NCBI GenBank assembly: GCA_964035575.1
Contig: OZ037843.1
Span: 496,001 to 560,000, forward strand
Reading direction: 5' to 3'
DNA from: Rhynchopus sp. YZ270_cl-10
Taxonomy: Eukaryota
DNA length: 64,000 nt
Shown here: positions 5,357 to 63,744 of the stretch, piece after piece
How the letters are laid out: the number at the start of each line of letters is the position of its first letter
Position numbering within the stretch: the first letter of the stretch is position 1
Translations under genes and position numbers: made by a program
Notes under the pieces: model-generated
Database searches by the model: none
What the model saw: the letters and a program-made list of their open reading frames with translations, nothing else
What the model was told of the DNA's origin: nothing

Positions 5357-5532
5357 TACCTGGGTACCTGGGTACCTGGGTACCTGGGTACCTGGGTACC
5401 TGGGTACCTGGGTACCTGGGTACCTGGGTACCTGGGTACCTGGGTACCTGGGTACCTGGGTACCTGGGTACCTGGGTACCTGGGTACCTGGGTACCTGGG
5501 TACCTGGGTACCTGGGTACCTGGGTACCTGGG
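5357..5532. repeat. (TACCTGGG)x22 tandem repeat
   Basis: Perfect 8-bp array read directly. Confidence 0.97.
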
Positions 5533-6450
5533 TATGGCGTGTACAATCTCCCTCGAGTGTACAATCCAAAAATTGTATAGATCTGACTTTTGTATAGTCA
5601 AATCTATACAATTTGTGTACGACCTAGTGTATACTAGGATTGTACATAAATTGTATAGATCTGACTATAAAAAAAGTTGGGATTGTACATCAAATAGTCA
5701 GATCTATACAATTTCTATACAATTGTATGTACAATTGACAATTGTATATACAATGAGTGTATAGATCTGACTATAACCCTGTGTATATGTGTATACATTT
5801 GACTTTCACCCAAAAAAAAAAAAAAAAAAAATGCTGGGATGCATCTGAGCAGTGCTCAGTCACCCAGACAAAAGGAAACGATAAAAAAAAAAATGTGGAC
5901 GTTGGGGAGGTGCGATGGGGTGGGATTGGGGTGGGGGTGGGAAAGAAGAAAAGTTTATACACAGCGAACGGCAATAGAAACGAATAATATTTTTTTTTTC
6001 CCTTCTTTTTTTTTTGAAAGAAATAATATTATAAAACTATCCAGAATCTCATTCGTTTGTGTTTGCTTTTTGATAATTTGTTCGATTAGTGTTTTGAAAG
6101 AAAAACTGATAACATGAGCTAAAGTCTCATGCACTTATCCACATTGCAATCGTAACTTTTTATCAAAAAATAAAACTCTTCCTTTTTTCGATAGATATTC
6201 AGTCAAAAGAAACGAAAACAAGGAAAAAAGAGAGAGAAAGCTTTTTCGTTGATCGCTCGAATTAGTGTCCCTGAGTGAATGAGTCTGGGGAGTAATTCGG
6301 CAAGCACTATCTAAAAAAAAACAGAGTTTTATTTTTATATGACGATTCTCGAAAAGAAGATGCTTTTTTTTTTCCTCTCTGATGTCGATACAACGCCCTA
6401 CGGATCGAATGGATGCTACAATCTCTCTTTTTTTTTTTTTTTTTTTTTTT

Positions 6451-6497: not shown

Positions 6498-7695
6498 TAC
6501 CTAACATTTTTACGTCACCGCAGACGAGCGCGATGATCTCTCTTGTGTGGCAGATGTCACATTGATGCCCTACGGAACGATTGGATTTTACAATCTCTCT
6601 TTTTTTTCTTTTTTTTTTTTTTTTGATAAATTGTTGGATTGTTTGGATGAACAAAACCCTCTCGTGTCGCGGGGTATCCTGAATAAAAGGGGGAGGTACT
6701 CGAGAAGGTATGTGGGATATGCAGGTTGTAAGAATGGCGGGTGGGGGTTTTTGATTTGAAAAATAAAACAAGATATAAATTTATCTCATTCATTCATCAA
6801 TCAGTCATAAAAAAAAAACGCTGAAGAAAAAAAAAAAGATAAAAATAAACGGTGGAATATGCAGTTGTAAGAATGGCAGTAGGGGATATTTGAAAAAATT
6901 AAAGCAGAATTTTCATTTCTGGTATTTTTTTCAGGAGGGGAGAGGGGGGTAATAAATGTTGACAATATGAATACTATTATGATTCGTGTACTTCTCTGGG
7001 TGAGCTAGGATCGTCTCCGTGAGACACGTAACAGGCTGTGAGAGCTTGTGAGAGTGTGTGAGAGTCTCTGAGAGCCTGTGAGAGCTTACTGAGAGCTAGT
7101 GGAAAAAAAAAAAAAAAAAAAATCTCTCCCCGTTCATAGATCACCCAATCTCTTGAAAATCTTGAAGAATAATTTTCATATACATTCCAATCAAAGACTA
7201 GAAAACACACAAACGTTCAAGAAGAGAGAGAGAGAGAAAAGTGGACAAAAAAAAAATCCTAAAAATTCTTGTATTTGTGACCCTGAAGGGAATATTCGTT
7301 TTGTGCGTAAAGTGTAATAAATATTCTGTGTTGAAACTTTTACTGCAATACGCTCCCACTGACCTGGCTGTGAAGAGGAAATCTCTTTGAGGCCAAAAAA
7401 AAGATGTCGGTTTAAATAGGGAACAAACACGTGGTGTAGTAAGAAAGTCTTAAAAAAGGGAAGGCAGGCATAACGAGCGGGAAAAAAAAAAAAAACAGAA
7501 AAGAGTGGAAAGATGCAGAGCATCCCCCTTCGGGGGGCTACACGCGTTTGATTTTTTTTTTTCTTTTTTTCTTTTTTTTGAAAACTTGGTTGTATTAGTG
7601 TAGACACCCGAGAGGATGCACTCCACTATAATATTTTTTGTTTGATTTGAGGGGAAAACATTTTTTCTTTTTTTTTTTTTTTTTTTTGCATTTGT

Positions 7696-8561
7696 CATAC
7701 TTGGACCGCCCGAAATATATTTCGGGCATTTCGGGCGATTTCGGGCGAATTAGGGGCGGATTTCGGGCGATTTTGTGCGCCCGAAGTCGCCCGAAATCGC
7801 CCGAAATGCAGATTTCGGGCGAATTCGGGCGCTTTTTCCGTAGTGAAAACCGACTAGGTAGGGTTCTACTCATTTTCGCAAAAAACTTTTTATATTTGGA
7901 AAGATTTGATGCCAAATCTGTCAAAATAAGCAAGAATCGAAAACTTTTGTACACCTGAGTGCACTTTGGAGGCCCGTGAGAATCACCACCAAGTCACGGG
8001 TTTTCTGACTATCATTTGCTTATTCCTACCCAAAACACACTATGAACCGGGTTTTCACTATTTTTTCGTATTTCAGGGTGAATTTTTGTGAATTTTCGGG
8101 TCACAGGGTGGTTCTGACCCATTCTCGGGGTGTTTCGGGCCTGTAGTTGCTCAGGAGATGCCCAAAAACGTGAAAAATCGCCTTTTTACGTTTTTAGTAG
8201 TATTTTAGTGTAAATTGTTAAGGAAATCGGTTTTATACGTGGCTGCTAACAGAGCTGCACTCATATAAGTTGGGTTCTACTAGGAATTTTTGCTCAATTT
8301 TTTTTTTCTTTGAACAAATTTTGTGCCAATCTTTCAAATAAAGCGTTAGATTTTTACACAGATAGCATGCTTCCCAGCACACATAAGATACTGGTTGTGC
8401 GCCCGAATTCGCCCGAAATGTGCCCGAATTCGCCCGAATTACGTATAAATTCCCTTTAAAACGCCCGAAATATATTTCGGGCACATTTCGGGCGCTCGGG
8501 ATCCGCGCCCGAAAAATCCGCCCGAATTCGCCCGAAATATATTTCGGGCGGTCCAAGTATG
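7696..8561. mobile_element. MITE family with CATACTTGGACCGCCCGAAATATATTTCGGGC TIRs, 6-bp TSD (copy 1)
   Basis: Perfect TIR, TSD ATTTGT, subterminal GCCCGAA repeats. Confidence 0.92.
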
Positions 8562-8639
8562 ATTTGTAGACAGGCTATTATATACGATTTTTTTCCTTAC
8601 CAAAAGTGCAAAAAAAGTGAGGTTGCTATTCCTGAGGGG

Positions 8640-11872: not shown

Positions 11873-12660
11873 TTATTCTATTTGTCTAGTAAAAACACTT
11901 TATACGTGCAATCCCTCTATAAAACGAATAAATTAAAGTGGACTTTATTTTACAGCTCGCACGAGGGTTTTCTATGGAGCTGTAAAATAAAGTTTTACTC
12001 CGTAAAATAAAGTTTTACACGCTGGAGACCAGGGTTTCCCCTACTTTTTTCACCAGCGCCCCACGAAAAACCGAGTAAAATAAAGTGTGCTGGAAAATAG
12101 AGGAGCTGTACGAAGATTATGGGATCTGTGTACCTGTGTACCTGTGTACCTGTGTACCTGTGTACCTGTGTACCTGTGTACCTGTGTACCTGTGTACCTG
12201 TGTACCTGTGTACCTGTGTACCTGTGTACCTGTGTACCTGTGTACCTGTGTACCTGTGTACCTGTGTACCTGTGTACCTGTGTACCTGTGTACCTGTGTA
12301 CCTGTGTACCTATACCTGGGAAAATGGGTACTCCCACTTTATTGTTCATTGTCATGCATGAGAAACAGTGCCCTTATGTCACCCCTGTTTTTTGTAGTAG
12401 TACACCCACACCCTCTCCACTCTTTGGTCAACATCATTTTATTCGTTTTAAAGAAGGATTGCGTATATCGTGTTTTTACTAGACAAATAAAACAACTTAT
12501 CACTGCAAAATAAAGTAGACTTCACTATTTTACTCGATATTTCCAGGTGCACTCGTGTATTTTTTTTTCCCTCGCTTCGCTCGGGAAAAAAATACACACT
12601 CGTGCACCTGGAAATATCGCGTAAAATAAAGTCTACTTTATTTTACAGTAATAAATAGTT
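11873..12660 (-). mobile_element. Asymmetric hairpin-ended element (family H2)
   Basis: The left end (TATTTGTCTAGTAAAAACAC..AAAACGAATAAA) is inverted at ~12436-12490, followed by a terminal foldback 12494-12660 centred on CTCGCTTCGCTCG. T-rich flanks. Confidence 0.8.
12131..12306. repeat. (TACCTGTG)x22 tandem repeat
   Basis: Perfect 8-bp array read directly. Confidence 0.97.
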
Positions 12661-25502: not shown

Positions 25503-25536
<34 letters not shown>

Positions 25537-25584
25537 AAAACTTGGTTGTATTAGTGTAGCCACCCTAGAGTGTGCTCCACTATA

Positions 25585-33233: not shown

Positions 33234-34035
33234 CATACTTGGACCGCCCGAAATATATTTCGGGCATTTCGGGCGAATTCGGGCGCTTTTTCCTTAGTGA
33301 AAACCGACTAGGTAGGGTTCTATTCATTTTTGCAAAAAACTTTTTATATTTGGAAAGATTTGATGTCAAATCTGTCAAAATAAGCAAGAATTGAAAACTT
33401 TTGGACACCTGAATGCACTTTGGAGGCCCGTGAGAATCACCATCAAATCATGGGTTTTCCGACTATCATTTGCTTATTCCCACCCAAAACACACTATGAA
33501 CCGGGTTTTCACTATTTTTTCGTATTTCAGGGTGGTTTTTTGTGAATTTTCGGGTCACAGGGTGGTTCTGACCCATTCTGGGGGTGTTTAGGGCCTGTAG
33601 TTGCTCAGGAGATGCCCGAAAACGTGAAAAAACGGCATTTTTACGTTTTTTTACGTTTTTAGTGGTATTTTCGTGTAAATTGTTAGGGAAATCGGTTTTA
33701 TACGTGGCTGCTAACAGAGCTGCACTCATATACGTTGGGTTCTACTAGGACTTTTTGCTCGATTTTTTTTTTCTGTGAACAATTTTTGTGGCAATCTTTC
33801 AAATAAAGCGTAAGATTTTTACACTGGTGGCATGCTTCCCAGCACACATAAGATACTCCAGTGCACTGGTTGTGCGCCCGAATTCGCCCGAATCTGCCCG
33901 AAATCGCCCGAAATACGTATAAATTCCCTTTAAAACGCCCGAAATATATTTCGGGCACATTTCGGGCGCTCGGGACCCGCGCCCGAAAAATTCGCCCGAA
34001 TTCGCCCGAAATATATTTCGAGCGGTCCAAGTATG
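33234..34035. mobile_element. CATACTTGG MITE, copy 2
   Basis: Same TIRs as copy 1; TSD GTAAAA. Confidence 0.92.
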
Positions 34036-42756: not shown

Positions 42757-43295
42757 TCTAAAAAATAAACGAGCTGAAGGAGAAGAAGAAGGAGGAAGTA
42801 GGGGTATGTGCAGAAGGGAGGAGAGAGAAGCGAGTAATGAGGAAGGAGCGAGGGGGGACAAGTATCCCTGTTGGGTGGTGAATAATTTTTTTGTAGGAAG
42901 TGGGGGTGGGGGGAGAAGTATTATTTGAGTGATAAAAAAAAAAAAAATACGCGAATGCACAGCGAGCCGGTCAACCCTGCGTAAAAGCCTATGTGTACAA
43001 CGGAAGGTATAGACAGCGTTCGTCCCAGTGGTCTTGATGTATGTCAAATGATGGTCGATCCGTGTGCGCGTAAGCTACCCTAGTTTTGAAAAGATGGAAA
43101 AAAAGCAGGAGTGGAGGGAGAGGGGGGGGAGACGTTATTTTACCCCGTCTTTTTTCTAGGTACATTTTTTTTTTTTTTTTTGCTTTTTTTTTTTCGTTTT
43201 GGTTTATTTTTGATAATCTGGGTTGCGTTTTCCCCCCCTTTTTTTCTTATAATCTCTTGGTACATCATCAAAAGCTAATCTAGTTTTTTTTTTTT

Positions 43296-44049
43296 TTTTC
43301 TCAACTGAGGAAAAGTAGCTCTGAGCAAACCCCGTGGAAGAAGTGTGAGGATAAATTCACTTTTCCTCACACATAGCCACTTTTCCTCACGCAATTTGGA
43401 AAAGTAGCAATAATTTTTGGCTGGGGTTTGTGTAGAAAAAAGCCTATGTGTGAGGCTTTTTTTGGTGTGAGGAAAAGTAGAGGGGGGGGTCGAAAAAAAA
43501 ATTGGGTGGGAGAGTGGGTCATTTTGATATCTCTGCTTCACATTTTGTCACCGTGACCAACATGACCATTTTTTGGTCCATTTTTTCGGCCAAAAATTTG
43601 GTACCACAGGGCTATACCATATTCTGGGATTATCAATCTTTTGAAAATACGGCCTGGTATTCGGGCCAAAATGTCCCATGGGGCCCATAGTAGCCTTACT
43701 GGGTGTCGAGCAGAGCCAATCTTAATAGTGAAATTCGATTTTCTGTGAAAAATATTCCCACCAAAAAATCGTCTTTTTTTTTCTGCATATTCACCCCACA
43801 CTTCTTCCACGGGGTTTGCTTAGAGCTACTTTTCCTTCAGTTGAGAAAACTATTATATTCTGGTGAAATATTCACTTTCCCTCCACTCGTGCCCTTTCAG
43901 AAACTCGTGGCTGACTTTATCCCACTCGCTTCGCTCGTGAGATAAAGTCTATTACCCCACTCGCTTCGCTCGTGGGGTAAAATGCCACTCGTTTCTGAAA
44001 GGTACACTCGTGTGAGGAAAAGTGAATATTTCCTCAGACGAATAAATAG
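43296..44049 (-). mobile_element. Family H1, copy 2 (uninterrupted)
   Basis: Near-identical to 1318-2476 without the SINE; T-rich flanks. Confidence 0.88.
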
Positions 44050-44130
44050 CTATTTTTTGAAAACTTGGAAAAATCACGTGTCGCAACAGAATATATCCAC
44101 GCCACGCCCACCCTCCGCCCAGCTTACTTC

Positions 44131-44192
44131 CATTTCGCGGTCTACGTTGAGATGTCCTACTCCCGCTACCGCTCGTCAGTCAACGAAACGGG
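44131..44192 (-). ncRNA. Non-circularly permuted hammerhead ribozyme
   Basis: Minus strand: CCCG-ttt-CGTTGA-CTGACGA-GCGGT-ag-CGGG-agtagga-CATC^TCAACG-tag-ACCGC-GAAATG. Confidence 0.75.
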
Positions 44193-45120
44193 TATAATTG
44201 GAACACAAGGGAGCAACTCCTTGTGCGAAGTAAGTGACTCGGGGGGGGTTTTTTTTCATTTACCGACCCTCCCCCTTGAAATTGTCCCTGGCGGCAAAAT
44301 ACCGGTTTTTAGGGGGGACAATTTCATGGGGAGGGTCGGTATTTATTTTTTTAGCACAAAAAATTTAAAAAAAAAAAGCACTTCAACGTAGGGTGGGTCC
44401 ATCACTTTAAGTCATATGAGAATAGGTTGTGGTCACCTAACTATGGTTGGAGACAAAGGTACACAGTGGCCACGTGACATACAAATGACATTGCTATCAT
44501 TTGCCCTTTGGTACGTAACACCGCCACACGGCAACACGCTTTCATAGCATTGCTTTCTTTTTTTTTTTTGCGTGAAATGCATAAAAACAAACATAAAAAG
44601 TCATACATTTCAAAGTACGATGCAAAATAGAATACTATTGTAGCAATGTTACCCGGAGGGGGTACATGGTTCACTGTGAATTGGGGAGGAGGGGAGTTTG
44701 AAAATGTTTTTTGCATGTTTCGAAAGTGCTTTGTGCTCTGTTTAATTTTGCTTGATAGAGAGGAGGGGGGCAGACCACGACCCTTTGTAAGCACCACAAA
44801 AAATATTCGCCGTTGACTATTTGTGTCTCTTTTTTTTTTTTGTAGATTACCCTGAGGGCAGGCTCACTTTTGTCTGTGTTTAGTGCTCGGAGGGCCCAAA
44901 AATTTTCCGCGCGCGCGCGCAAGAAAAAAACATGGAAAAAAAACATGGAAAAAAAAAATAAGAAAAAACACACACACACACACACACGTTGCACGGTGTG
45001 CATGATTGGTGAAACTTTTAAACGCCGGCATTTGCATTTCCGGAATTCGTCCGGCCAGTGGTGGGGTCAATTTGCCGAAATGGACAAGTTCTCGTTTTTG
45101 GTCAATTTCTGCACAGTACA

Positions 45121-45471
45121 CAGTATACACAGTATACACAGTATACACAGTATACACAGTATACACAGTATACACAGTATACACAGTATACACAGTATAC
45201 ACAGTATACACAGTATACACAGTATACACAGTATACACAGTATACACAGTATACACAGTATACACAGTATACACAGTATACACAGTATACACAGTATACA
45301 CAGTATACACAGTATACACAGTATACACAGTATACACAGTATACACAGTATACACAGTATACACAGTATACACAGTATACACAGTATACACAGTATACAC
45401 AGTATACACAGTATACACAGTATACACAGTATACACAGTATACACAGTATACACAGTATACACAGTATACA
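45121..45471. repeat. (CAGTATACA)x39 tandem repeat
   Basis: Perfect 9-bp array read directly. Confidence 0.97.
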
Positions 45472-45485
45472 CAGGGGATTGGGAG

Positions 45486-48400
45486 TACAGTACAGTACAG
45501 TACAGTACAGTACAGTACAGTACAGTACAGTACAGTACAGTACAGTACAGTACAGTACAGTACAGTACAGTACAGTACAGTACAGTACAGTACAGTACAG
45601 TACAGTACAGTACAGTACAGTACAGTACAGTACAGTACAGTACAGTACAGTACAGTACAGTACAGTACAGTACAGTACAGTACAGTACAGTACAGTACAG
45701 TACAGTACAGTACAGTACAGTACAGTACAGTACAGTACAGTACAGTACAGTACAGTACAGTACAGTACAGTACAGTACAGTACAGTACAGTACAGTACAG
45801 TACAGTACAGTACAGTACAGTACAGTACAGTACAGTACAGTACAGTACAGTACAGTACAGTACAGTACAGTACAGTACAGTACAGTACAGTACAGTACAG
45901 TACAGTACAGTACAGTACAGTACAGTACAGTACAGTACAGTACAGTACAGTACAGTACAGTACAGTACAGTACAGTACAGTACAGTACAGTACAGTACAG
46001 TACAGTACAGTACAGTACAGTACAGTACAGTACAGTACAGTACAGTACAGTACAGTACAGTACAGTACAGTACAGTACAGTACAGTACAGTACAGTACAG
46101 TACAGTACAGTACAGTACAGTACAGTACAGTACAGTACAGTACAGTACAGTACAGTACAGTACAGTACAGTACAGTACAGTACAGTACAGTACAGTACAG
46201 TACAGTACAGTACAGTACAGTACAGTACAGTACAGTACAGTACAGTACAGTACAGTACAGTACAGTACAGTACAGTACAGTACAGTACAGTACAGTACAG
46301 TACAGTACAGTACAGTACAGTACAGTACAGTACAGTACAGTACAGTACAGTACAGTACAGTACAGTACAGTACAGTACAGTACAGTACAGTACAGTACAG
46401 TACAGTACAGTACAGTACAGTACAGTACAGTACAGTACAGTACAGTACAGTACAGTACAGTACAGTACAGTACAGTACAGTACAGTACAGTACAGTACAG
46501 TACAGTACAGTACAGTACAGTACAGTACAGTACAGTACAGTACAGTACAGTACAGTACAGTACAGTACAGTACAGTACAGTACAGTACAGTACAGTACAG
46601 TACAGTACAGTACAGTACAGTACAGTACAGTACAGTACAGTACAGTACAGTACAGTACAGTACAGTACAGTACAGTACAGTACAGTACAGTACAGTACAG
46701 TACAGTACAGTACAGTACAGTACAGTACAGTACAGTACAGTACAGTACAGTACAGTACAGTACAGTACAGTACAGTACAGTACAGTACAGTACAGTACAG
46801 TACAGTACAGTACAGTACAGTACAGTACAGTACAGTACAGTACAGTACAGTACAGTACAGTACAGTACAGTACAGTACAGTACAGTACAGTACAGTACAG
46901 TACAGTACAGTACAGTACAGTACAGTACAGTACAGTACAGTACAGTACAGTACAGTACAGTACAGTACAGTACAGTACAGTACAGTACAGTACAGTACAG
47001 TACAGTACAGTACAGTACAGTACAGTACAGTACAGTACAGTACAGTACAGTACAGTACAGTACAGTACAGTACAGTACAGTACAGTACAGTACAGTACAG
47101 TACAGTACAGTACAGTACAGTACAGTACAGTACAGTACAGTACAGTACAGTACAGTACAGTACAGTACAGTACAGTACAGTACAGTACAGTACAGTACAG
47201 TACAGTACAGTACAGTACAGTACAGTACAGTACAGTACAGTACAGTACAGTACAGTACAGTACAGTACAGTACAGTACAGTACAGTACAGTACAGTACAG
47301 TACAGTACAGTACAGTACAGTACAGTACAGTACAGTACAGTACAGTACAGTACAGTACAGTACAGTACAGTACAGTACAGTACAGTACAGTACAGTACAG
47401 TACAGTACAGTACAGTACAGTACAGTACAGTACAGTACAGTACAGTACAGTACAGTACAGTACAGTACAGTACAGTACAGTACAGTACAGTACAGTACAG
47501 TACAGTACAGTACAGTACAGTACAGTACAGTACAGTACAGTACAGTACAGTACAGTACAGTACAGTACAGTACAGTACAGTACAGTACAGTACAGTACAG
47601 TACAGTACAGTACAGTACAGTACAGTACAGTACAGTACAGTACAGTACAGTACAGTACAGTACAGTACAGTACAGTACAGTACAGTACAGTACAGTACAG
47701 TACAGTACAGTACAGTACAGTACAGTACAGTACAGTACAGTACAGTACAGTACAGTACAGTACAGTACAGTACAGTACAGTACAGTACAGTACAGTACAG
47801 TACAGTACAGTACAGTACAGTACAGTACAGTACAGTACAGTACAGTACAGTACAGTACAGTACAGTACAGTACAGTACAGTACAGTACAGTACAGTACAG
47901 TACAGTACAGTACAGTACAGTACAGTACAGTACAGTACAGTACAGTACAGTACAGTACAGTACAGTACAGTACAGTACAGTACAGTACAGTACAGTACAG
48001 TACAGTACAGTACAGTACAGTACAGTACAGTACAGTACAGTACAGTACAGTACAGTACAGTACAGTACAGTACAGTACAGTACAGTACAGTACAGTACAG
48101 TACAGTACAGTACAGTACAGTACAGTACAGTACAGTACAGTACAGTACAGTACAGTACAGTACAGTACAGTACAGTACAGTACAGTACAGTACAGTACAG
48201 TACAGTACAGTACAGTACAGTACAGTACAGTACAGTACAGTACAGTACAGTACAGTACAGTACAGTACAGTACAGTACAGTACAGTACAGTACAGTACAG
48301 TACAGTACAGTACAGTACAGTACAGTACAGTACAGTACAGTACAGTACAGTACAGTACAGTACAGTACAGTACAGTACAGTACAGTACAGTACAGTACAG

Positions 48401-48530
48401 TACAGTACAGTACAGTACAGTACAGTACAGTACAGTACAGTACAGTACAGTACAGTACAGTACAGTACAGTACAGTACAGTACAGTACAGTACAGTACAG
48501 TACAGTACAGTACAGTACAGTACAGTACAG
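45486..48530. repeat. (TACAG)x609 microsatellite
   Basis: Perfect 5-bp array spanning 3045 bp. Confidence 0.98.
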
Positions 48531-50147
48531 TTCTTCGTAGAACTTCGTTTTGCAATAAGAAAGCCTCACCCTTCTTCCCAGAATTCCTCCCAGAACCAGC
48601 TGGGCACCAATACTGGAAATATCGTAAAAGCATAACTATTTTGGACGATTTTGTGGACGATTTGGCTGCTACTCGGAAAATCCATTTGTTTGCGGGTTTC
48701 CCGGAACCTCACAAAAATAAATCCCATCGATCATTTTTTGAAACATTTCACAATATTTTTGTAGGAACTTGGTGCACAAAATCACCTCAAGCCCCACTAC
48801 TCTCTCCCTCACACCTTTTATTACTACAATGTTTTTTTTTTTTCCCATGTTTTTTTTTTTGGAATTCTCAAAATTTTCCGCGCGCGCGAGCAATAAACAC
48901 AGGCAAAAGTGAGCCTGCCCTGAATGTTTTTTTTTTGAAAACTTGGTTGTATTAGTGTAGCCACCCTAGGCTAGAGTATGCTCCACTATGGATTTTTTTT
49001 TTGTCACCTCACGAAATGAAGGAGGAAATAGAAACAACGCACTTTGAACACACTTTGCGGTTCTAGGGAAGAACCGCGTTGCAGAGCCACGCCTCACCAA
49101 ACAGGTCGAGGTGTGTGCGTTTCACCACAACCTCTCCCATGGGTTTTATCGTGTGATGAGTGTTAAGTTTCTATTTTGTGTCTAACCCCCTTGCTGGGCA
49201 CCTCGGGTGTGTGTTGAATGACTGCACTATGCCGCCTCACTCTCCTCATAGTTTTCGGGTTGACGGGTTTGCGGGATCAACAAAAAAAAAAAAAAAATGT
49301 TCCCAAAACTAAGCACATCAAAAAAAAATAGAGGGAACTGAAAAAAAGGAAAAAAAAAAGAGGGAAAAAAAAAACGTTCAAAACGTGCTTTGTTGAAATA
49401 GGTGAGAATCTCAGAAGCGGTGCAAGAAACCCCCAAGAAGACGGCTTCAGTGAAAAAAAAAGGGGGGTGTGACTGTGTGGTAGTGAGGTAGTGACTACTG
49501 TGCCTGCTGTTGTTTATTCAATTGCAAGGTTTTTTTTTTGTTGTGGGTGTGTGTGTTTTCTTTTCTTTTTTTCTTTTTTTGATAAATTGTTAGAGTAGTG
49601 TAGTTGTCTCGGTTGTGTTGCCACAGTTTGTGCAATCTCCACTTTCTGTTGTTGTTGCTGTTGTTGTTGTCGAACGAACCACCCACCTGAGGTAGGATCG
49701 GTATTCAATTGTCGCCCGAGGGCTATTGACTGAAGAATTTAAGAGATATATCTCCAAGGGTAAAAACACGGGATGCGCTCTGCCTTTTTCTTCTTTTTTT
49801 GTTTTTTTTTTTTTTTTTTTGAAAACTTGGTTGTATTAGTGTAGCCATCCTAGAGCGCGCTCCACTAACTTTTTTTCTTTTTTCTTTTTTTTTTTTTTTT
49901 GATTATTTTTTCTCGAAAAGATCGAAAAAACAAAAGTGCAAAACAATAAATAATAAATACCGCCCGATCCGTGTCAGGTCTGTTACAAAAAAAAACAAAA
50001 AATAAGGCTAAAATACTTGCGAAGTGAACCCACATATCCACTACGGCAATCAACACCAACCACTAGCCTCTACGCACCTCCACACCAAAGCCGCCCCTTT
50101 CTCCTTTGCTGCGCCCAGTGGGCAGGCTGCGGCTCTGCGTCGGGACG

Positions 50148-53304: not shown

Positions 53305-55791
53305 TCAGTCTTTCTCTATCATTTCGACCAGCGCCGCAGTAAACGCGGTGTACTCAGGGAGACAACGTGACCACTGCTTCAGCTCGGCTTGGTGCACCAG
53401 AGAGTGCATGAAGTTGAGACAGCGTTCCCGCAGCATGTCGCCATTTGGGGTCTCGCACGCTGCGTTCACCTGCGCGAAGGAAAATGCAAGATCGGTCATA
53501 TCCGCCAATGTCTCAAGCTCGGTAAGCAAACGCGCATACACGATCCGCTGCTTCTTGTACGCACGCCTCGAGAACACCAAGGTATACATCGCGTCGTATG
53601 TCAACGAAACCCTCTGGGTAAATGCCTCACACGCAGCCACAATCTTCCTCAAGGTACTGCACCGTACGAAGCACCGCCCCGCCACATTCGCCACCTTCCC
53701 GACAAATTGCACCTCCGTCACGGCCGGCACCTCCATCCCCTGCACCCCACCTGCCCACTTCTCTAGCCTCTCCCTCAACACTCTCGCATTATCTGGCAGC
53801 CTATTTGGATCATCCGCGATCCGTTCATTCTGCCCCGCAACATCAACACCACTGGACCCACCAGAAGGAGGGGGGAACCCTGTACCACGCAGCTCAATGA
53901 GACGGAGGCGTTCAGTGATCATAGCGCGTCCGGTGGTTTGAAAAAGCGCGGATTCTGTGTTAAAGAGCGCCTGGGGTGCCATCTGGGTGTGGTAGTTTGC
54001 GACGTAGCGCAGAGGGGTAGCGAATGTGGTGGCAAATCGTTCGCGTTGTTCTGGGGGTGCGAGAGCGACGCCGCAGTGGATCACGACAGCGAGAAGTGGC
54101 GACAGAATTTCGACCGGGATGTCTTCTGGGTGTATCGAGGCGTGCGCCAGGTCGTCACGACCACGTGGCCCATCCTGCCATATCCAATGATCATATAAGA
54201 CATCCGTTGCCCCATTGCCGAGGAATGGAAGCAGATGGTTTGCACCCGGCGACAAAATTTCGTCCACAGTAACAAAGAGCTCATCCTTGATGGGTGCACG
54301 CCAACGGTGGTCTAGATCATTCACCGCCGCGTAAACCCTACGTAACGCAGATTCGAGAAGCACTGAAACCAACGCTGCCGCTTTGTACACACTGCAGGCA
54401 TCAGATGCAACACCGTTCATACACACCCGACCTCCATTTGCCAAACCCTCAGTTGCGCTGAGTTTTGAAGCCTTTTCTAGATACAATGTACTATAGTAGG
54501 CCTCAAGCGCCTCACCCCATTCGTTCTCTCTCGAGGAAAGAAAAAACGCGCTGTTTGCAACCAAATCCAAAAAGGCGTTTTTCCCGATCCCCAGCAGCGC
54601 TTCCGTCAGCTCCGTCGGTGTAAGATCTATCCCCCGCCTTTTGAGACCTCCGGTCCATTCTTTTAGATCAAAGAGAGGCCCCCCTTTGTGAGCGGACGCT
54701 CTCTTCGCAGTGATGTCCATCAACACAAACGGGGTTTCTTCTGTGATGTAGGATATCCTCTCTGGAAGACCTCGCAGTTTTTCCTCTACCCCAAATCTCT
54801 CCAATGCGTTGGCGTACTTCTTTGCTATTAATGGTTTGGTCTGAAGCATTGCGGCGACCGCTTTAAAACATTCTGCACGAACCTCTTCTTCGCACCCCTT
54901 TACCTCCCCAAAGGGTCGGGTAACATCATATAGAATGTCACCAATACTCACAACACTATGAGGATTTGATATAACAGATTTCAAAGAAACTTTATGCAAT
55001 GAAAGAATTATGTGAAGGAGAAGAACAGCATAAGAAGGATGTAACTCTTCTGCCGAAAGAAAATTGTGCCAAACCAGGTTGCGTAGAGAAAGTCCGTGGA
55101 GAGGGCCGAAAAGGGCGCGGAAGAGAAGGATAGTCTTAACCCCGAGAAGCCTTTTGAGGAATTCATTCTGGAGAAGGTCGGTCGATTTGGTTTCTCGAAG
55201 GGTGATAGCAGCACCACCTCCCCCTTTACCCCTCCCTCCCCATACCAACACCGCGGTTAAGGCGCGCTCCAAATATGAAACACATAGCATGAATGCAACC
55301 ATCTGATCCACTCTCGATCCCTTCATCAATGTTATAACCACCTCAATCACCCCCTTAGGGAAGGTTCGGAGCGCTCTCGGAACCGCGAGACTTTCAAAGT
55401 CCGAATGGAGATCCGATGCGCAGCATTTGAGACGTTCAACAATGGTGAGGTAGCTGGATTCGTCTGGGTGGATCTCATTTTTCTCCCCTTTTTGCGTAGA
55501 TGAAGGCAAATCTCGGGTACGTTTGTAAGACCCCCAGAGGGGTAAAGCAGAGTCGGGAACACATTTTTCGGCAAGCTGGCAGAGATCGAGAAATCCGTCT
55601 TTGTCGGTGAGCGTGGTGGAGGTGGTGGAGGTGGAGGTGGTGTTGTGATTGCCCTCAATCCGGCACAACGTTTGCGTCACATCAAACACAGCAGCCTCTT
55701 CACACTGTGCAGCCAGACGTCCAGGGCTGCCACCACCCAAAATATCTAACACCACACGGGACACTTTGTACCGTGGTGAGACGGCTGGCAT
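53305..55791 (-). CDS. ERMARD: ERMARD-like (DUF4209) protein, 828 aa
   Basis: Long ORF. The motif LERAL...FGPLHGLSLRNLVWHNFLS resembles ERMARD GLNLRNxLWHGF, and there is a second GPRGRDDLAH motif. First ATG at 55791. Confidence 0.8.
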   Translation of the reverse strand: MPAVSPRYKVSRVVLDILGGGSPGRLAAQCEEAAVFDVTQTLCRIEGNHNTTSTSTTSTTLTDKDGFLDLCQLAEKCVPDSALPLWGSYKRTRDLPSSTQKGEKNEIHPDESSYLTIVERLKCCASDLHSDFESLAVPRALRTFPKGVIEVVITLMKGSRVDQMVAFMLCVSYLERALTAVLVWGGRGKGGGGAAITLRETKSTDLLQNEFLKRLLGVKTILLFRALFGPLHGLSLRNLVWHNFLSAEELHPSYAVLLLHIILSLHKVSLKSVISNPHSVVSIGDILYDVTRPFGEVKGCEEEVRAECFKAVAAMLQTKPLIAKKYANALERFGVEEKLRGLPERISYITEETPFVLMDITAKRASAHKGGPLFDLKEWTGGLKRRGIDLTPTELTEALLGIGKNAFLDLVANSAFFLSSRENEWGEALEAYYSTLYLEKASKLSATEGLANGGRVCMNGVASDACSVYKAAALVSVLLESALRRVYAAVNDLDHRWRAPIKDELFVTVDEILSPGANHLLPFLGNGATDVLYDHWIWQDGPRGRDDLAHASIHPEDIPVEILSPLLAVVIHCGVALAPPEQRERFATTFATPLRYVANYHTQMAPQALFNTESALFQTTGRAMITERLRLIELRGTGFPPPSGGSSGVDVAGQNERIADDPNRLPDNARVLRERLEKWAGGVQGMEVPAVTEVQFVGKVANVAGRCFVRCSTLRKIVAACEAFTQRVSLTYDAMYTLVFSRRAYKKQRIVYARLLTELETLADMTDLAFSFAQVNAACETPNGDMLRERCLNFMHSLVHQAELKQWSRCLPEYTAFTAALVEMIEKD

Positions 55792-56082
55792 TGTGGGGCC
55801 TTTTTTTATGTACTCAGCGCAAAAAAAAAAAGGATACAAAGTGTGTGAACTGACCGCGAATTTCTGCGATAAAGGAATTCAAAAATGCGGTGTAATCTGT
55901 TGGGGTGTTTGTCAGAAAGTTGTTGTTTTTGCTTTGTGCTCTTTTTGTTTTGGTGGTCTTTAAAAATGTACTATTTGCTTTTTTGTTTTGTTGTTGCTTT
56001 TGTGTTTTGGATCCATGACCAATTGGTCTTCAGGAATCTTTTTTCGTGTTTTTCAAAATAAAAGAAAAGGAAAAGTTAAAAA

Positions 56083-56153
56083 CTGGTTTCGGCGGTCTGC
56101 TCCCTGACCAGGAAAAGTGCCCTTCGACCGCGCTCATCAGAAGGAGCAAGGGC
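56083..56153 (-). ncRNA. Non-circularly permuted, pseudoknotted hammerhead ribozyme (apparently intact)
   Basis: Minus strand: GCCCTT-GCTCCTT-CTGATGA-G-c-GCGGTC-g-AAGGGC-acttttc-CTGGTC^AGGGAGC-a-GACCGC-C-GAA-ACCAG. All core nucleotides and four helices are present. Confidence 0.85.
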
Positions 56154-56703
56154 TTAAAATAAAAAGTAAAAACATGAACACTTTTGTCGAGTCATTGTTT
56201 TTTTGAGTACACTTTGGAATAATAAAAAAGAGTGATGAAGTCGTTTTTTTGTTTGTGTTCAGGTATCGTAGCTCGCCAACCTGTGGGCAGACAGTATTCA
56301 CATATCAATGGTATACTGTCGTATGAATAGGGCAATTACACATATTCCTTGTGATAGCCTTCTCTTTGTAAGTAAAAGTAGAAAGGCTCTTTAAGCACTC
56401 AACATTAGGTTTTTTTAGTGTGTATCAGTGGGCTCAAGGTTTCGCTACCCCTCAGTTTATGGAACTAGCCAGGTTCCTTAGTCGAACGCACCACCGTTCG
56501 AGGAGAATTTACGCAGCATATGGGGGTTTCCCATAGCAGGCCCCGCGTTTTATATATTGGCAAGTGTGAGTCCTATCGGCTCATATTGCTTGCTCTCTGA
56601 GGTGGTTTAGAAGAAATTCACACACGATAGACAAAAATTGAAAACAGAAAAGGTAGAGTTTCTTGCTGAGGATTACTCCGTTCTTTTATTTGCATTGCAC
56701 TGT

Positions 56704-57556: not shown

Positions 57557-58711
57557 GTAAAAAAGAAAGAGGAAAAGGAGATTTGACATTCAATACGAGT
57601 CGTTCAACCTTATCCTTCTTTTGCAAATGTACTTTTCTTATCATATAAAGCCACGTTTTTATATTTTTTCAATTGTTTGTAAAAAGTAAAAATGGAAAAG
57701 GGTTTTACTCAATCCTCAAATAGGAGTTGAGTGAGCATGTTGGGGTCTGCGGAATCTGTTGGGGTGGTATAAAATAGTAACTCTGATAGGTAAGTAAGAG
57801 GAAAAAAGGTTTTTTCGTTGATTGCACAATTACCCGTTTGAGGGGTGATTGGCGACTGTATCTGAGGAACTATTTCTCCTTTAAGCTACGCTTGTAGGTA
57901 TAACAAAAAAAAGTTTTCAATTTGAACAAACCCTTTCAGGTCAACACTCACCCTCACCCTCCAACCGGTAGTCCTGGAATATTAGGTGTACTCCAGACTG
58001 TCTGGTAACAGCCTAAGTGATCTTCTGAGGTCAAATGAGCAGAAATGAAAACAAAAAAACACAAATTATCATTTTCATTTTTATTTTCAAAAGAGGAAAA
58101 CAAACCAGAAAGGGTAGTTGAAAACGTGCTAAAAGCGTAGCTCGGTCGAGGGGGGAAAGAAGAAAAGTTTATAAGATGACCCTAAGCCTCTCGTGATTAG
58201 ATTATTCATTGGTTTATTCATCAGTCATTTGTTTTTTTTTTGTGTGCCATTGCTACTCGTGGGTGGCAATTTGTTTTAAGTAAGCCTCTCGTGCCTTAGT
58301 CACCTTATCAAAAATGTCAAGAGACCACACCGACTGACATATCAGCCAATCACGTGAACCTGAAAAGGTTTACCCAAGAGTTGGTCCAGTTGTCCTCAAA
58401 GCCGTCACACCCCGAGGGGGGGGAGGTGTGCTGTCTGTTTTCCCTGTTGTGGCAACAACAGGGAGGTCCCCTCCGTATAGCGGTAAAATGGCACCCAACC
58501 GCCGGGACACGGTCCCGGGTTTACTTTGGATAGAGCAAATTTTTTTTTTGATTATAGACTACTATCACCTAGATAGGCAGCCACAGTTTTTCTTTCACAG
58601 GATCCTTAAAAAGAGAGCAAATAGAAGGGAGTACGCTTTGTACGATACCAAGATCGCGTTAGTCACCTTAACGGGGGGAAGAAATTGAAAATTTTGTTTT
58701 GATAGACTACT

Positions 58712-59619
58712 CATACTTGGACCGCCCGAAATATATTTCGGGCGAATTCGGGCGAATTTTTCGGGCGCGGATCCCGAGCGCCCGAAATGTGCCCAAAATA
58801 TATTTCGGGCGTTTTAAAGGGAATTTATACGCAATTCGGGCGAATTCGGGCGCATTTCGGGCGAATTTGGGCACATTTCGGGCGAATTCGGGCGAATTCG
58901 GGCGCACAACCAGTATCTTATGTGTGCTGGGAAGCATGCCACCAGTGTAAAAATCTAACGCTTTATTTGAAAGATTGGCACAAAATTTGTTCAAAGAAAA
59001 AAAAAATTGAGCAAAAATTCCTAGTAGAACCCAACTTATATGAGTGCAGCTCTGTTAGCAGCCACGTATAAAACCGATTTCCCTAACAATTTACACTAAA
59101 ATACTACTAAAAACGTAAAAAGGCGATTTTTCACGTTTTTGGGCATCTCCTGAGCAACTACAGGCCCTAAACACCCCCAGAATGGGTCAGAACCACCCTG
59201 TGACCCGAAAATTCACAAAAATTCACCCTGAAATACGAAAAAAATAGTGAAAACCCGGTTCATAGTGTGTTTTGGGTGGGAATAAGCAAATGATAGTCAG
59301 AAAACCCGTGATTTGGTGGTGATTCTCACGGGCCTCCAAAGTGCACTCAGGTGTACAAAAGTTTTCGATTATTGCTTATTTTGACAGATTTGACATCAAA
59401 TATTTCCAAATATAAAAAGTTTTTTGCGAAAATGAGTAGAACCCTACCTAGTCGGTTTTCACTAAGGAAAAAGCGCCCGAATTCGCCCGAAATCTGCATT
59501 TCGGGCGACTTCGGGCGTTTTCGGGCGAATTCGGGCGCATAAAATCGCCCGAAATCCGCCCCTAATTCGCCCGAAATCGCCCGAAATGCCCGACATATAT
59601 TTCGGGCGGTCCAAGTATG
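58712..59619. mobile_element. CATACTTGG MITE, copy 3 (inverted)
   Basis: Same TIRs; TSD ACTACT. An empty-site paralog lies at ~58550-58640. Confidence 0.92.
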
Positions 59620-60548
59620 ACTACTATCACTAGATAGGCAGCAACGGGTTTTCTTCGCAGGATCCTTAAAAAGCGAGCAAATAGAAGGGAGTACGCTTTG
59701 CAGTAGGAGGTGTGTACTCTGGATAGAGCACATAGAGCAACCACGTACTGCTTTGACAGCGTTAAAGTCATGAGAGTGAATACCAAGTATTTTTTAAAAA
59801 AATAAATAAAAATACCTCCCGCACACCCTGGAAAGGGGGGGGCGGAACAACAACAATGGAATTGCATTTTTTTTATTTACAGCCAAAGTGATTGACCTTG
59901 CTTCAATCTTGCGCACATCGCGCTCATATGTGCCTGTACATCGTTCGGGTGAAAAGAACGTTCCTCCAAAAATGGTGTCAAAAACAGTAAAATCACCTCA
60001 CAAGCCACTGTATGTGTAAAAGGGGCAAAAATAGCCTAAAAACACGGGGAAAAATACCCAAAAAAAAAAGGGGGTCAAAAAAAAAAAATGTATTTTTGCC
60101 AAAGCCCCCAGCCGCCGGAAAATGGTTTTTGGGCACCGCAAAAGGAGATGGTGGACTGTGCACGACAGGCGAATATGTCAACACCAAAAACGGCATGCCT
60201 CGTTCTTGTGGTCAATAGGAGAACATGGCAACATGGCAACGTGCGTCACGACTGCTTAGGCAGAGCGGAGGCCCCAAACGAACGGTTCACTAGGCATACA
60301 CTTGATGCGAGTCGCATGCGAGAATCATTCTCGTTCACATAGAAGGGTTTTGGTCGTGCGAGAATGAGCAAGAATTGTACGACAATGCGAGAATGCGACT
60401 CGATCGAGTGTATGACCAGGGGGATAAAGAAAACAAAAACAAAACAAAATCGACTTGAAACACAAAAACCCTCTCGTGAACAGTGTACCTTTTGGTACAA
60501 ATGACCGGCGGTACCGGGGGTGGACACCCAACCATGCGGTCCTACATC

Positions 60549-61304: not shown

Positions 61305-63398
61305 CTAATACACACTCTCTCTACTGCCGCACTTCGTAACAACTCTGTAGCACTCCTTGTACGGAACGAGAACCTTCTCGACTGCAGACAGCAGTGTTGT
61401 GCCCTCGGGAGGCTCGAACAGACACACCACACCGTCGCGCACAGCCTCTTCGCACAGCGTCCAGCTCCGGCGCACAGTTGTCCCCATCACCGTCACAAAG
61501 CGCTGCTTGCGTGCCCCCACATCACCATGCTGGATCAGCCCGCTTGCGAGGCCAACACCGTGCAGGGTTGCCTTCACGACCATGCGTTGTGCAAAGCGGA
61601 TCGCATTCTCCATGTGTGCAGGGGCAGGGCGGCTTACGTTCCACGACACGCAGACACGGCTGCCAAGGAGCGTCACCAGGCTTCCGCCACTTTGGCTGAG
61701 TGCGACGGTAAGTGTCGAGAGGCCCGCGTTAATGTCGTTCAGTGTTGCATGGCGTTCGTCTCGGACTGCTAGGTCCATCACACCCACAGTGCCGGACACC
61801 TGTCGTGCAGAAGAGGGTACAACGACAGACTGAAGCGACGAAGTGGAGTGCGTCGAGCCAGTTGCCTTCGACACTAAGCTTCCCTTGTGAAATACGCGCA
61901 AGTCACCAAGGGGCCGCCCCTTCCGTCTCCCGAGCGTCACAGGCCACACAGGACACACAAATATCGTATCACTCACGCCCTTCAGGTCAAGTGATTCTGT
62001 CTCACCCACAACAGCACTGCACGCACAACAGTCAGACGTCCACAGGTCAGAGGACACAGCAACAGCCCCAGGCGTGCATATGCTCTCAAGGCGTGACGCA
62101 ACGTTGACAGTGTGTCCGAAGTAGTCTGTCCGTCCAGTGAGTGCGTTCTGTTCGATGGCGACAGGGCCGGTGTTGACACCAATGCGCACAGTGAGGCCAC
62201 CCCACAGAGAGTCTTGTGGTGTGCAGATGGGGACGTTGAGGAGCGACGCAGGCCAGTCCGCGTGGAGCAGCTTCTCGTGTACCTGCAGAGCAAAGTTTAT
62301 CCCGTCTGCTGTTGTCGCAAAGGCAATCATGAAGGCGTCGCCAATGGTTTTGACTTCGTACCCACCAAACACCTGCATCACCTCCCTCATGACACGGTTG
62401 TGGGTATGCAACGCAGCGCCCATCCCGTCAGGTGCACACTCCCAGATCGACGTCGACGCACGGATGTCTGTGAACACAATCGTTGCTGTCCCACTCTCGA
62501 GCCCAGGTGGTGCCACAGATGTGTGCTGCACACCGTCCACCTCATCTTCCTCAAACAGCGCAGCAGGGAGGTAGGGACGGTACTTCCGCAGGTTCTCCTC
62601 CAACGTCTGCAGCGTTGCGCGCATCTCCTCTGGGAGCAACGTCTCTTGCGCCTCCAGCATGCGTGCCACGCCTTCCACGTCGTACCCAGCCAGGAGTGAG
62701 GCGATGTCCTGCACTGTAGCTATGGTCCGCTGCATGGCTTCCTTCTCCTTGAGTGCAGAACGCGCGAAGCCTCTCGTTGCTATAAAATCTACCGCAAATA
62801 TGCTGATGCTGGGGAGCAACGTGTACGGCGGGAACCCTACCGGGCAGGGCAATGCATCACACGCCGTGAGCTTGCTCAGGATCGCACGCCTCCCTTCGGC
62901 GCCTTCTTGCCACACGAGACCGGGCATTTCAAAGAGCCCAAAGCGAAAGCTTTCTTCGCACCCAAGAACAAGCAACCACACCACCACAAAGCACACCAGG
63001 CCGGTACTGTACCGTTCGGGCACCTCCACCACAAGCAACACATCGATGATGAGGACAAGCAGCGCCCAGTTCGTTTGCCCATGCGTACGTGCGTTCAGGT
63101 CCCACATCAGAAACCCTGCTGCGACGGTGTACAACCCCGGCACCACGACACACGTTGTGAGGTGCCGTTTACTGATAATAACGACTGCAGTCATCAGCGA
63201 CCCCAAGAAAACGCAGGAATATGCGAGAGTGCTTACGCTGAAGGGCGGCCGGCTCGACCAACGGTCGATCAACATGAGCATGCCCACCACAGGCAGTAGC
63301 ATGCCCATGAAGGAAACTATCAACAGCGTCAGCCGCTTCTTCTGCTCAGCTCTGTGCAGAGTTCCGTCAAGCGACAGTGCGTTCGCAAGACACTGCAT
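61305..63398 (-). CDS. Membrane-bound class III adenylate cyclase
   Basis: N-terminal hydrophobic helices; IVFTDI, YEVKTIGDAFM, RIGVNTG and DYFGHTVNVASR motifs (K/D indicate ATP specificity); degenerate second cyclase-like domain. The start is uncertain (the frame is open to 63443). Confidence 0.92.
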   Translation of the reverse strand: MQCLANALSLDGTLHRAEQKKRLTLLIVSFMGMLLPVVGMLMLIDRWSSRPPFSVSTLAYSCVFLGSLMTAVVIISKRHLTTCVVVPGLYTVAAGFLMWDLNARTHGQTNWALLVLIIDVLLVVEVPERYSTGLVCFVVVWLLVLGCEESFRFGLFEMPGLVWQEGAEGRRAILSKLTACDALPCPVGFPPYTLLPSISIFAVDFIATRGFARSALKEKEAMQRTIATVQDIASLLAGYDVEGVARMLEAQETLLPEEMRATLQTLEENLRKYRPYLPAALFEEDEVDGVQHTSVAPPGLESGTATIVFTDIRASTSIWECAPDGMGAALHTHNRVMREVMQVFGGYEVKTIGDAFMIAFATTADGINFALQVHEKLLHADWPASLLNVPICTPQDSLWGGLTVRIGVNTGPVAIEQNALTGRTDYFGHTVNVASRLESICTPGAVAVSSDLWTSDCCACSAVVGETESLDLKGVSDTIFVCPVWPVTLGRRKGRPLGDLRVFHKGSLVSKATGSTHSTSSLQSVVVPSSARQVSGTVGVMDLAVRDERHATLNDINAGLSTLTVALSQSGGSLVTLLGSRVCVSWNVSRPAPAHMENAIRFAQRMVVKATLHGVGLASGLIQHGDVGARKQRFVTVMGTTVRRSWTLCEEAVRDGVVCLFEPPEGTTLLSAVEKVLVPYKECYRVVTKCGSRESVY

Positions 63399-63744
63399 CA
63401 CAACCCCAACCCTCCCAAATAGCAAAGGCGGCAAGTGGACCACACCTCAGCACCCACAAAGAATATGTGTAACACCTATGTGGAGGATGGCGTGGACTGT
63501 CGGCCTCGAAAGACAAGCCGCGATAGCAACCCTACAATGGGTGTGCTCAAGCTGGTGCCTAAGGGGGTAGTGGTGCATGGAGGTTGTGCTCATTCTCGCC
63601 TCGAACGTCACACATAGTGCGATGTGAGGCCGGAGAAAGAGAGAAAGTGCCTCAACAACACCAAAGGGATGAAGTTTTGGGTATTTTGTATACAGTTATT
63701 CTCGCCTCGAACATCACACATGGTGTGATGTGAGGCCGGAGAAA

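Follow-up and report, generated by a model that had tools for sequence, protein, structure and literature searches.

Introduction

The closest described relatives of the RNA considered here are the type-CSG hammerhead ribozymes, a permutation defined by Eckert, Friedrich, Weinberg and Weinberg in 2023 (PMC10085705), and the present work concerns a candidate of this type, here called ribozyme A, on the minus strand of a 64-kb stretch (64,000 nucleotides [nt]) of contig OZ037843.1 from Rhynchopus sp. YZ270_cl-10, hereafter the window. In that paper, type CSG comprises two unique and near-identical sequences, termed CSG-1 and CSG-2, found only in soil metagenome DNA and given without a known host or a stated context. 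In vitro, both self-cleave in cis where expected, with rates of 0.004 and 0.026 per min, respectively; the covariation of the type is called "modest", and the authors rate its biological relevance as less well supported than that of type SGC. The corresponding supplementary row reads 5, 66, 25, 3, 0, soil, DNA, which we took, from headings visible in part, to give the number of sequences, their length, the base pairs and the pairs that covary by R2R and by R-scape (PMC10085705).

The type-SGC hammerheads (HRIMA-1 and its variants) differ from the RNA described here in their block order, S-G-C, and they come almost only from metatranscriptomes, where they lie near hairpin ribozymes on presumed circular RNAs (PMC10085705). 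In our literature search, the terms "type-CSG" and "type-SGC" occurred in PMC10085705 only, no publication placed the CSG layout in a eukaryote genome or a short interspersed nuclear element (SINE), and a 2026 paper mentioned permutations in passing only. The block permutation itself is already known as type CSG; what is new here are the sequence classes, the type of host and the genomic setting.

A candidate type-CSG hammerhead on the minus strand

All coordinates are positions in the window, the RNA is read on the minus strand, and the tables of base pairs were scripted from the coordinates. As judged from its sequence, segment 44192-44131 of the minus strand probably encodes a rare type-CSG (non-circularly permuted) hammerhead predicted to cut itself between C44151 and U44150. 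Its letters are CCCG UUU CGUUGA CUGACGA GCGGU AG CGGG AGUAGGA CAU C / UCAACG UAG ACCGC GAAA UG, with the slash at the predicted cut, and the single strand carries the CUGANGA block (C) first, the cleavage site (S) second and the GAAA block (G) last. The parts of ribozyme A are as follows.

44192-44131, minus strand: ribozyme A proper, 62 nt
44192-44189, minus strand: 5' strand of the joining helix (pseudoknot), CCCG; 4 of 4 pairs with CGGG
44185-44180, minus strand: 3' strand of stem I, CGUUGA, directly 5' of the core; 6 of 6 pairs with 44150-44145
44179-44173, minus strand: block C, core CUGACGA (C3-A9), read and also found by pattern
44172-44168, minus strand: 5' strand of stem II, GCGGU; 5 of 5 pairs with 44141-44137, G10.1-C11.1 included
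44165-44162, minus strand: 3' strand of the joining helix, CGGG, in the linker 3' of stem II
44154-44151, minus strand: block S, 5' strand of stem III and triplet (C-AUC); triplet AUC at 44153-44151
44150-44145, minus strand: 5' strand of stem I, UCAACG, followed by the 3-nt linker UAG (44144-44142)
44141-44137, minus strand: 3' strand of stem II, ACCGC; pairs with 44172-44168
44136-44131, minus strand: block G, GAAA (44136-44133) and 3' strand of stem III (A15.1, U, G; 44133-44131)
44226-44203, minus strand: 8-bp hairpin about 11 nt upstream of ribozyme A; -11.3 kcal/mol, z-score -2.4

A preliminary description of this region had named stem I as CGUUGA/UCAACG, stem II as GCGGU/ACCGC and the pseudoknot as CCCG/CGGG, and all three helices were present on the minus strand with 6, 5 and 4 base pairs (bp), respectively. 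The triplet AUC opposite GAAAUG was likewise read at the place it had given, and its cut site, 44151/44150, agrees with the one predicted here; the core consists of CUGACGA and GAAA. The range that it assigned to the ribozyme, 44131-44250, held in part: the ribozyme occupies 44131-44192, and the remainder consists of the upstream hairpin (44203-44226) and the 5' part of a repeat that is treated below.

All pairs of the four helices are standard. Stem II opens with the pair G10.1-C11.1, and stem III, as had been described, is only 3 bp long (U44152-A44133, A44153-U44132 and C44154-G44131). It is followed by four purine-purine oppositions (G.A, A.G, A.G and G.A), through which a non-canonical extension of the helix could form. 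Because of the C-S-G strand order, stems I, II and III cross one another. The predicted cut, 3' of C17, was placed between C44151 and U44150 by analogy with CSG-1 and CSG-2, which are cut at the analogous site in vitro.

Two further copies and their compensatory changes

Two other sites in the window carry the same layout, and one of them has its own hairpin upstream.

56153-56083, minus strand: copy B, a second type-CSG candidate, unrelated in sequence to A outside the core
60617-60550, minus strand: copy C, A-like, 80% identical over about 60 nt
about 60648-60626, minus strand: 7-bp hairpin upstream of copy C, differing in sequence from the hairpin of A and in the same relative place; -10.2 kcal/mol, z-score -1.3

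An alignment of the three copies by MAFFT misplaced the middle of B, and the pair tables were therefore built from coordinates instead. In copy B, a 4-bp joining helix (GCCC/GGGC), a 3-nt spacer and a 6-bp stem I lead into CUGAUGA; stem II follows with 6 bp and one bulged C, and the second strand of the joining helix lies in the linker after it. Stem III has 5 bp, the triplet is GUC, the linker from S1 to S2 is 3 nt long (CAG), and GAAA comes last. From these elements the cut of B is predicted between 56106 and 56105. A comparison of A with B revealed changes on both sides with the pairing kept at 5 of the 6 pairs of stem I and at 2 of the 3 pairs of stem III. These two classes, unrelated in sequence, share the same spacing of a 4-bp helix, a 3-nt spacer, a 6-bp stem I and the core.

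The likeness between A and C is confined to the ribozyme of about 60 nt. Stem I of copy C differs from that of A by three double changes (U-A to C-G, G-C to U-A and C-G to A-U), a change on one side only (A-U to G-U) and one added C-G pair, which brings it to 7 bp; stem II shows one double change (C-G to U-A) and the loss of one end pair, which leaves 4 bp. In all, A and C are separated by four compensatory double changes, the number of sequences (n = 3) being too small for a statistical covariation test. The 4-bp joining helix of C is shifted by one position. Its triplet is AUA, and an additional A 3' of GAAA creates an A.A opposition at 15.2/16.2, so that stem III is not formed as drawn and U16.1-A15.1 is its sole pair; judging from these differences, copy C is probably impaired.

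The invariant core is complete in all three copies (C3 U4 G5 A6 N7 G8 A9, G12 A13 A14, A15.1-U16.1 and G10.1-C11.1), and H17 is never G, being C in A, C in B and A in copy C. Several further claims of the preliminary description concerned this comparison. The core and the C-S-G order in A, B and C bore out the view of a permuted hammerhead with one fold and differing sequences, and the statement that stem I varies yet stays paired agreed with the three double changes between A and C and the five changed pairs between A and B. The proposed covariation of the triplet with the base after GAAA was recovered for GUC/GAAAC (copy B) and AUC/GAAAU (copy A); the third combination, GUA/GAAAC, was absent in three scans of the window, and the third copy has AUA/GAAAA instead.

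Relation to CSG-1 and CSG-2

Ribozyme A and its companions agree with CSG-1 and CSG-2, as depicted in PMC10085705, in the whole strand order from the 3' strand of stem I to the closing strand of stem III, in the conserved core and in a 5' extension that pairs with the linker 3' of stem II, which gives four helices in the same order (Supplementary Figure 10 of that paper). The sizes are also close, 66 nt for CSG-1/2 versus 62-71 nt for the copies here. The differences lie in the details: no sequence likeness was seen outside the core, in a comparison made by eye only; the joining helix of CSG-1/2 has 8 bp and abuts both stems, whereas here it measures 4 bp and is set off by spacers of 3 nt and 2-4 nt; stem III has 5 bp in CSG-1/2 and 3 bp in copy A (PMC10085705). 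Unlike in CSG-1/2, 13-15 nt separate stem II from stem III here, and N7 is C in copy A. CSG-1/2 are hostless sequences from soil DNA whose cleavage has been demonstrated; the copies described here lie in many-copy form in a eukaryote-like nuclear genome, one class within a poly(A)-tailed repeat, and their cleavage is predicted.

The published search descriptor (PMC10085705) calls for CUGAUGAG, a spacing of up to 10 nt from stem II to stem III, and no fewer than 4 bp in stem III. Ribozyme A departs from it in all three respects, with CUGACGAG, 13 nt and a 3-bp stem III, and copy B departs from it only in the linker, which is 15 nt long. The published descriptor would miss both A and B, which accounts for the fact that such copies are unreported.

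The layout exceeds chance

We searched the window with a strict descriptor that comprised the C-S-G order, a stem I of at least 4 bp, a stem II of at least 3 bp, a stem III with an A-U pair and two or more further pairs, and a linker no longer than 10 nt. Two sites were returned, whereas 100 shuffles gave 0.06 on average and never more than 1, and a looser pattern, CTGANGAG..GAAA, matched five times where 0.88 matches were expected. Relaxing stem III in the descriptor added a third site, copy C, and allowing one core mismatch gave no further site in the window. The CSG layout in the window exceeds chance.

It is accordingly extremely unlikely that a CUGANGA and a GAAA have merely come to lie near short complementary stretches. 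Besides the shuffles, such an accident would have to account for three copies on one strand (minus) within 17 kb, for the same spacing in two sequence-unrelated classes, and for a likeness that is restricted to the ribozyme both between A and C and among the copies of B. The helices are indeed short, and Rfam recognizes no hammerhead here: a scan of the whole window gave no match at gathering score, and around the A site, at E values up to 10, only weak non-hammerhead matches appeared, with none to hammerhead types I, II and III, HH9 or HH10. This silence is expected, since nested models cannot represent the C-S-G strand order. The 18-base pattern CTGANGAGN{3,7}AGCGGGAGTAG did match 52 unrelated loci in metagenome contigs (and none in viral contigs), a frequency that would speak for accident; however, the C-S-G layout was present, by eye and by descriptor, in 0 of these 52.

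As relatives of the ribozyme, the 52 metagenome loci were rejected as chance matches, several of which lie at the 5' ends of transfer RNAs (tRNAs). A 22-nt stretch of copy B matched no locus in viral contigs.

The repeat that carries ribozyme A

Ribozyme A lies within a multi-copy element that was delimited by contig depth and by loose ends in T-runs.

44252-44053, minus strand: SINE-like element carrying ribozyme A, about 190 nt, multi-copy

Five sequencing runs, none of which is recorded as RNA, contain most of a 9-kb probe. For four runs, Logan contigs were aligned at 80% likeness on 43950-44450, and boundaries were read from 17-nt bins. On this 501-nt stretch, 1116 contig pieces were obtained for run X3 and 530 for run X4. 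The summed contig depth, which differs from copy number and cannot rank the parts of a stretch, reached 1.8-6.0 × 10^5 over 44052-44238 in X3 versus 467 on the single-copy flank 44392-44450, and 3.4 × 10^4 to 1.9 × 10^5 in X4 versus 136 on that flank; the element thus has 400-1300 times the depth of the single-copy flank.

The 5' end of the element falls near 44238-44252, and at its 3' end stands CCAAGTTTTC with an A-run after it at 44053. Loose ends in a T-run of the plus strand just before 44053 were found in 32 records of X3 and 21 of X4, which indicates that, on the strand of the ribozyme, the copies end in CCAAGTTTTC and A-runs of varied length. The ribozyme therefore sits in the sense strand of the element, and its predicted cut is separated from the 5' end by about 88 nt and from the tail by about 98 nt. 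Collectively, these features led us to infer a SINE-like retroposon that is likely mobile.

Several other repeats share sequence with this element or lie near it. Its final 10-35 nt are common to a motif of about 50 nt with 13 copies in the window, all (13 of 13) in the same orientation, at sites within 6451-49841 (e.g., 7580-7600, 25536-25556 and 49821-49841); the motif has A-run flanks, reads ..TAGTGGAGCACACTCTAGGGTGGCTACACTAATACAACCAAGTTTTC on the minus strand and may represent either a very small retroposon or a signal between genes. A palindrome of about 80 nt (44256-44341) with the arms TACCGACCCTCCCC...GGGGAGGGTCGGTA adjoins the ribozyme element on its upstream side; it is also strongly multi-copy (depth of 2-5 × 10^5 in X3), gives weak Rfam matches resembling microRNA precursors, and has the look of a hairpin repeat similar to miniature inverted-repeat transposable elements. 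Segments 43288-44058 and 1310-2485 form a dispersed repeat of 99% identity that ends about 75 nt downstream of ribozyme A and contains hairpins of a GA-cis-like kind (CCCCACGAGCGAAGCGAGUGGGG), with a weak Rfam match.

Variation among genomic copies

Few variants occur inside the ribozyme among the copies of A. Two of them, at 44170 and 44139, face each other in a single pair of stem II and, if linked, would turn G-C into A-U; the variant at 44146 produces a G.U pair, and that at 44143 lies in the linker. The variant at 44176 would kill the core and was carried by one contig per run, and one contig per run skips 44120-44185 altogether.

In the surroundings of copy B, high depth is restricted to 56087-56154 (5.4-9.1 × 10^4 in X3), versus 2.4-3.0 × 10^3 just upstream and 1.1-1.7 × 10^3 further out, and at the resolution of the 17-nt bins this multi-copy block coincides with ribozyme B from its first helix to stem III. 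The B-copy variants within the ribozyme that reached the listing threshold all fall at 56114-56119, that is, in the unpaired stretch from the joining helix to stem III and in a terminal pair of the joining helix, which the change turns into G.U; the core is free of them. The depth block and the positions of the variants indicate that B-type ribozymes are spread over the genome in the form of conserved blocks, each about 70 nt long, that vary where the model leaves them unpaired.

About 150 nt downstream of ribozyme B, a very high-copy motif was noted at 55917-55967 (minus strand ..AGAGCACAAAGCAAAAACAACAAC.., depth of 2-3 × 10^5 in X3). Related copies (family D12) occur elsewhere in the window, including one at 44688-44733 near ribozyme A.

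A depth step was seen in ribozyme A, where X3, X4 and X9 drop by about one third between the bins 44137-44153 and 44154-44170. Such a step would fit copies that start at the cut, and it is a lead only, as few loose ends lie there (2 in X4, at 44153). Run X9, whose RNA nature is a guess, contains contigs identical to 44053-44151, 44122-44173, 44144-44236 and 55977-56150, from which we draw no conclusion; the first ends one base from the predicted cut of A and the last spans the site in B, contig ends being unable to show RNA ends.

Predicted cleavage and competing folds

If the model is correct, the RNA would fold into an ordinary hammerhead active site in which the 2'-OH of C17 attacks its own phosphate, leaving a 2',3'-cyclic phosphate on one product and a 5'-OH on the other. 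The 3-nt linker (UAG in A, CAG in B) would connect stem I with stem II at their far ends, and the 4-bp helix would hold these two stems together. In classical hammerheads this role belongs to loop-loop contacts, and it has been proposed for the 8-bp helix of CSG-1/2 (PMC10085705). Within the element, the ribozyme would process element-containing transcripts and set free a 3' product consisting of about 98 nt and the poly(A) tail. If cleavage is gated, or slow as in CSG-1/2, part of the RNA would stay full-length and serve as a template for copying the whole element. Only such uncleaved RNA would transmit the whole ribozyme, since a cut within the element parts the CUGANGA block from the rest.

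Several observations weigh against this account. Stem III of A has 3 bp, whereas copy B and CSG-1/2 have 5 there. In one sequence, the 4-bp joining helix is non-significant, and by our own estimate, made without a tool, a 4-bp match would be expected by chance in those ranges about 0.3-2 times. The three sequences in hand fall below what a covariation statistic needs; among the genomic copies of A, linkage of 44170 and 44139 in the same copies was not demonstrable, and one contig of run X6 has 44170 changed and 44139 unchanged. No relatives outside the reads of this organism turned up in the scans of viral or metagenome contigs. As regards the element, a Pfam search of 86 open reading frames (ORFs) of the window returned no reverse transcriptase, inspection by eye revealed no target-site duplication around the element, and no tRNA-like head was found in it; the element is accordingly a putative retroposon. 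The active fold also faces stable alternatives: GAAA is sequestered in A by an 8-bp clamp of CCGUUUCG with CGAAAUGG (part of a fold with a minimum free energy of -20.9 kcal/mol, z-score -1.4), and in C a 15-bp nested hairpin lies over the CUGAUGAG core (z-score -2.2). According to the folding models, these nested folds would permit uncleaved RNA to persist, yet they also argue against efficient cleavage. The biological role is the weakest part of the account and is uncertain, because cleaved RNA cannot pass on the whole ribozyme.

Some of the same observations would suit a ribozyme-derived motif that no longer cuts, either a relic or a structured RNA kept for another job, e.g., recognition by the reverse transcriptase of the element. 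The short stem III of A and the mismatched one of C, the masking of GAAA in A and of the core in C, the loss of half the ribozyme that cutting in mid-element would entail, and the already slow rates of published type-CSG RNAs all point in that direction. We consider this rather unlikely, since the catalytic bases are intact in all three copies, including the sequence-unrelated B, which would be unexpected for a mere scaffold. Moreover, stem III of copy B has its full 5 bp, and the listed variants of B spare the core and keep to the unpaired linker save for the one end-pair change that yields G.U.

The short and open-ended stem III also raises the idea of a hammerhead that cuts with help, whether by pairing of two copies, by a second RNA in trans or by a protein chaperone. 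Dimer-dependent cleavage has reportedly been proposed for the minimal hammerheads of Penelope-like elements. The 3 bp of stem III in A would fit such a dependence. Minimal hammerheads in Penelope-like elements (PMC4209133) offer a parallel; nevertheless, copy B with its 5-bp stem III needs no partner, CSG-1 and CSG-2 cleave in cis (PMC10085705), and the purine-purine oppositions after stem III of A could, on our reading of the sequence, extend the helix. We hold the need for help to be very unlikely, and the cis-cleaving type-CSG hammerhead remains the reading that we prefer for ribozyme A.

Comparison with ribozyme-bearing retroelements

Precedents for a sense-strand hammerhead in non-autonomous retroelements of many copies are the Penelope-like elements (PMC4209133) and the plant retrozymes (PMC4918200). 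The type I and type III hammerheads of retroelements are ordinary three-way junctions that Rfam detects, whereas the RNA described here is knotted. The Schistosoma SINE-like Sm-alpha repeat is a further retroelement that carries a classical hammerhead. The retrozymes have two ribozymes and form RNA circles, in contrast to the single ribozyme per unit and the poly(A) tail seen here.

L1TcRz, a ribozyme similar to that of hepatitis delta virus at the 5' end of L1Tc/NARTc in Trypanosoma cruzi (PMC3383444), likewise is a self-cleaving RNA inside a poly(A) retroposon of a protist, and it is thought to free the element RNA from longer transcripts. It belongs to another ribozyme class, however, and cuts at its own 5' edge so that the whole element is kept, whereas the CSG cut would fall about 88 nt inside.

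Against this background we advance, as a tentative and rather doubtful proposal, that with ribozyme A a type-CSG hammerhead would for the first time be linked to an organism and to a task, namely, as an RNA-processing module of a poly(A) retroposon family in a protist-like genome. The nested folds would gate the cut, cleaved 3' halves would be retrotranscribed as truncated copies, and whole RNAs would pass the ribozyme on; the occurrence of class B as a bare 70-nt module would mean that the layout has been recruited repeatedly in this lineage.

To type CSG, the window adds two further sequence classes with the same four helices, together with a eukaryote-like nuclear host, a high copy number and a defined genomic place, on the sense strand of a repeat with a poly(A) tail. 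Because the published descriptor misses a longer linker, an N7 other than U and a shorter stem III, knotted hammerheads may far outnumber the impression given by the literature. If the cut is confirmed, the element would offer a natural system for how a retroposon carries an internally cutting ribozyme and for the control of cleavage by alternative folds.

Neighbouring genes and other repeats in the window

The window has a eukaryotic look and is repeat-rich. Only two of its ORFs have a Pfam family.

53305-55839, minus strand: DUF4209 ORF (Pfam)
61305-63443, minus strand: adenylate/guanylate cyclase ORF, 712 amino acids (aa) (Pfam)

A protein search with the DUF4209 ORF returned no relative except itself. 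The cyclase ORF matched only bacterial cyclase clusters in the Atlas and had 495 relatives at an E value of at most 1e-5; among the 120 matches listed, identity was 54-71%, lengths were about 550-870 aa, and all lay on Mb-sized contigs of one source. To judge from these sequence matches, the ORF belongs to a very large paralogous family in this organism. Ribozymes A, B and C lie on the same strand as the neighbouring ORFs, B about 300 nt upstream of the DUF4209 ORF and C about 370 nt downstream of the cyclase reading frames, and this shared strand makes cuts in host transcripts conceivable.

Further repeats were noted away from the ribozymes. Repeats of up to 409 nt at 7694-8567, 33234-34035 and 58706-59621 are 93-97% identical and inverted, contain arrays of a 10-11-nt unit (ATTTCGGGCG) and probably represent a DNA transposon family. 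Arrays of 8-nt units occupy 5360-5540 and 12126-12300, with the units (CTGGGTAC)n and (CTGTGTAC)n, and a tandem array of a 9-nt unit extends over about 3.9 kb at 45027-48900, where nearly all reading frames are open.

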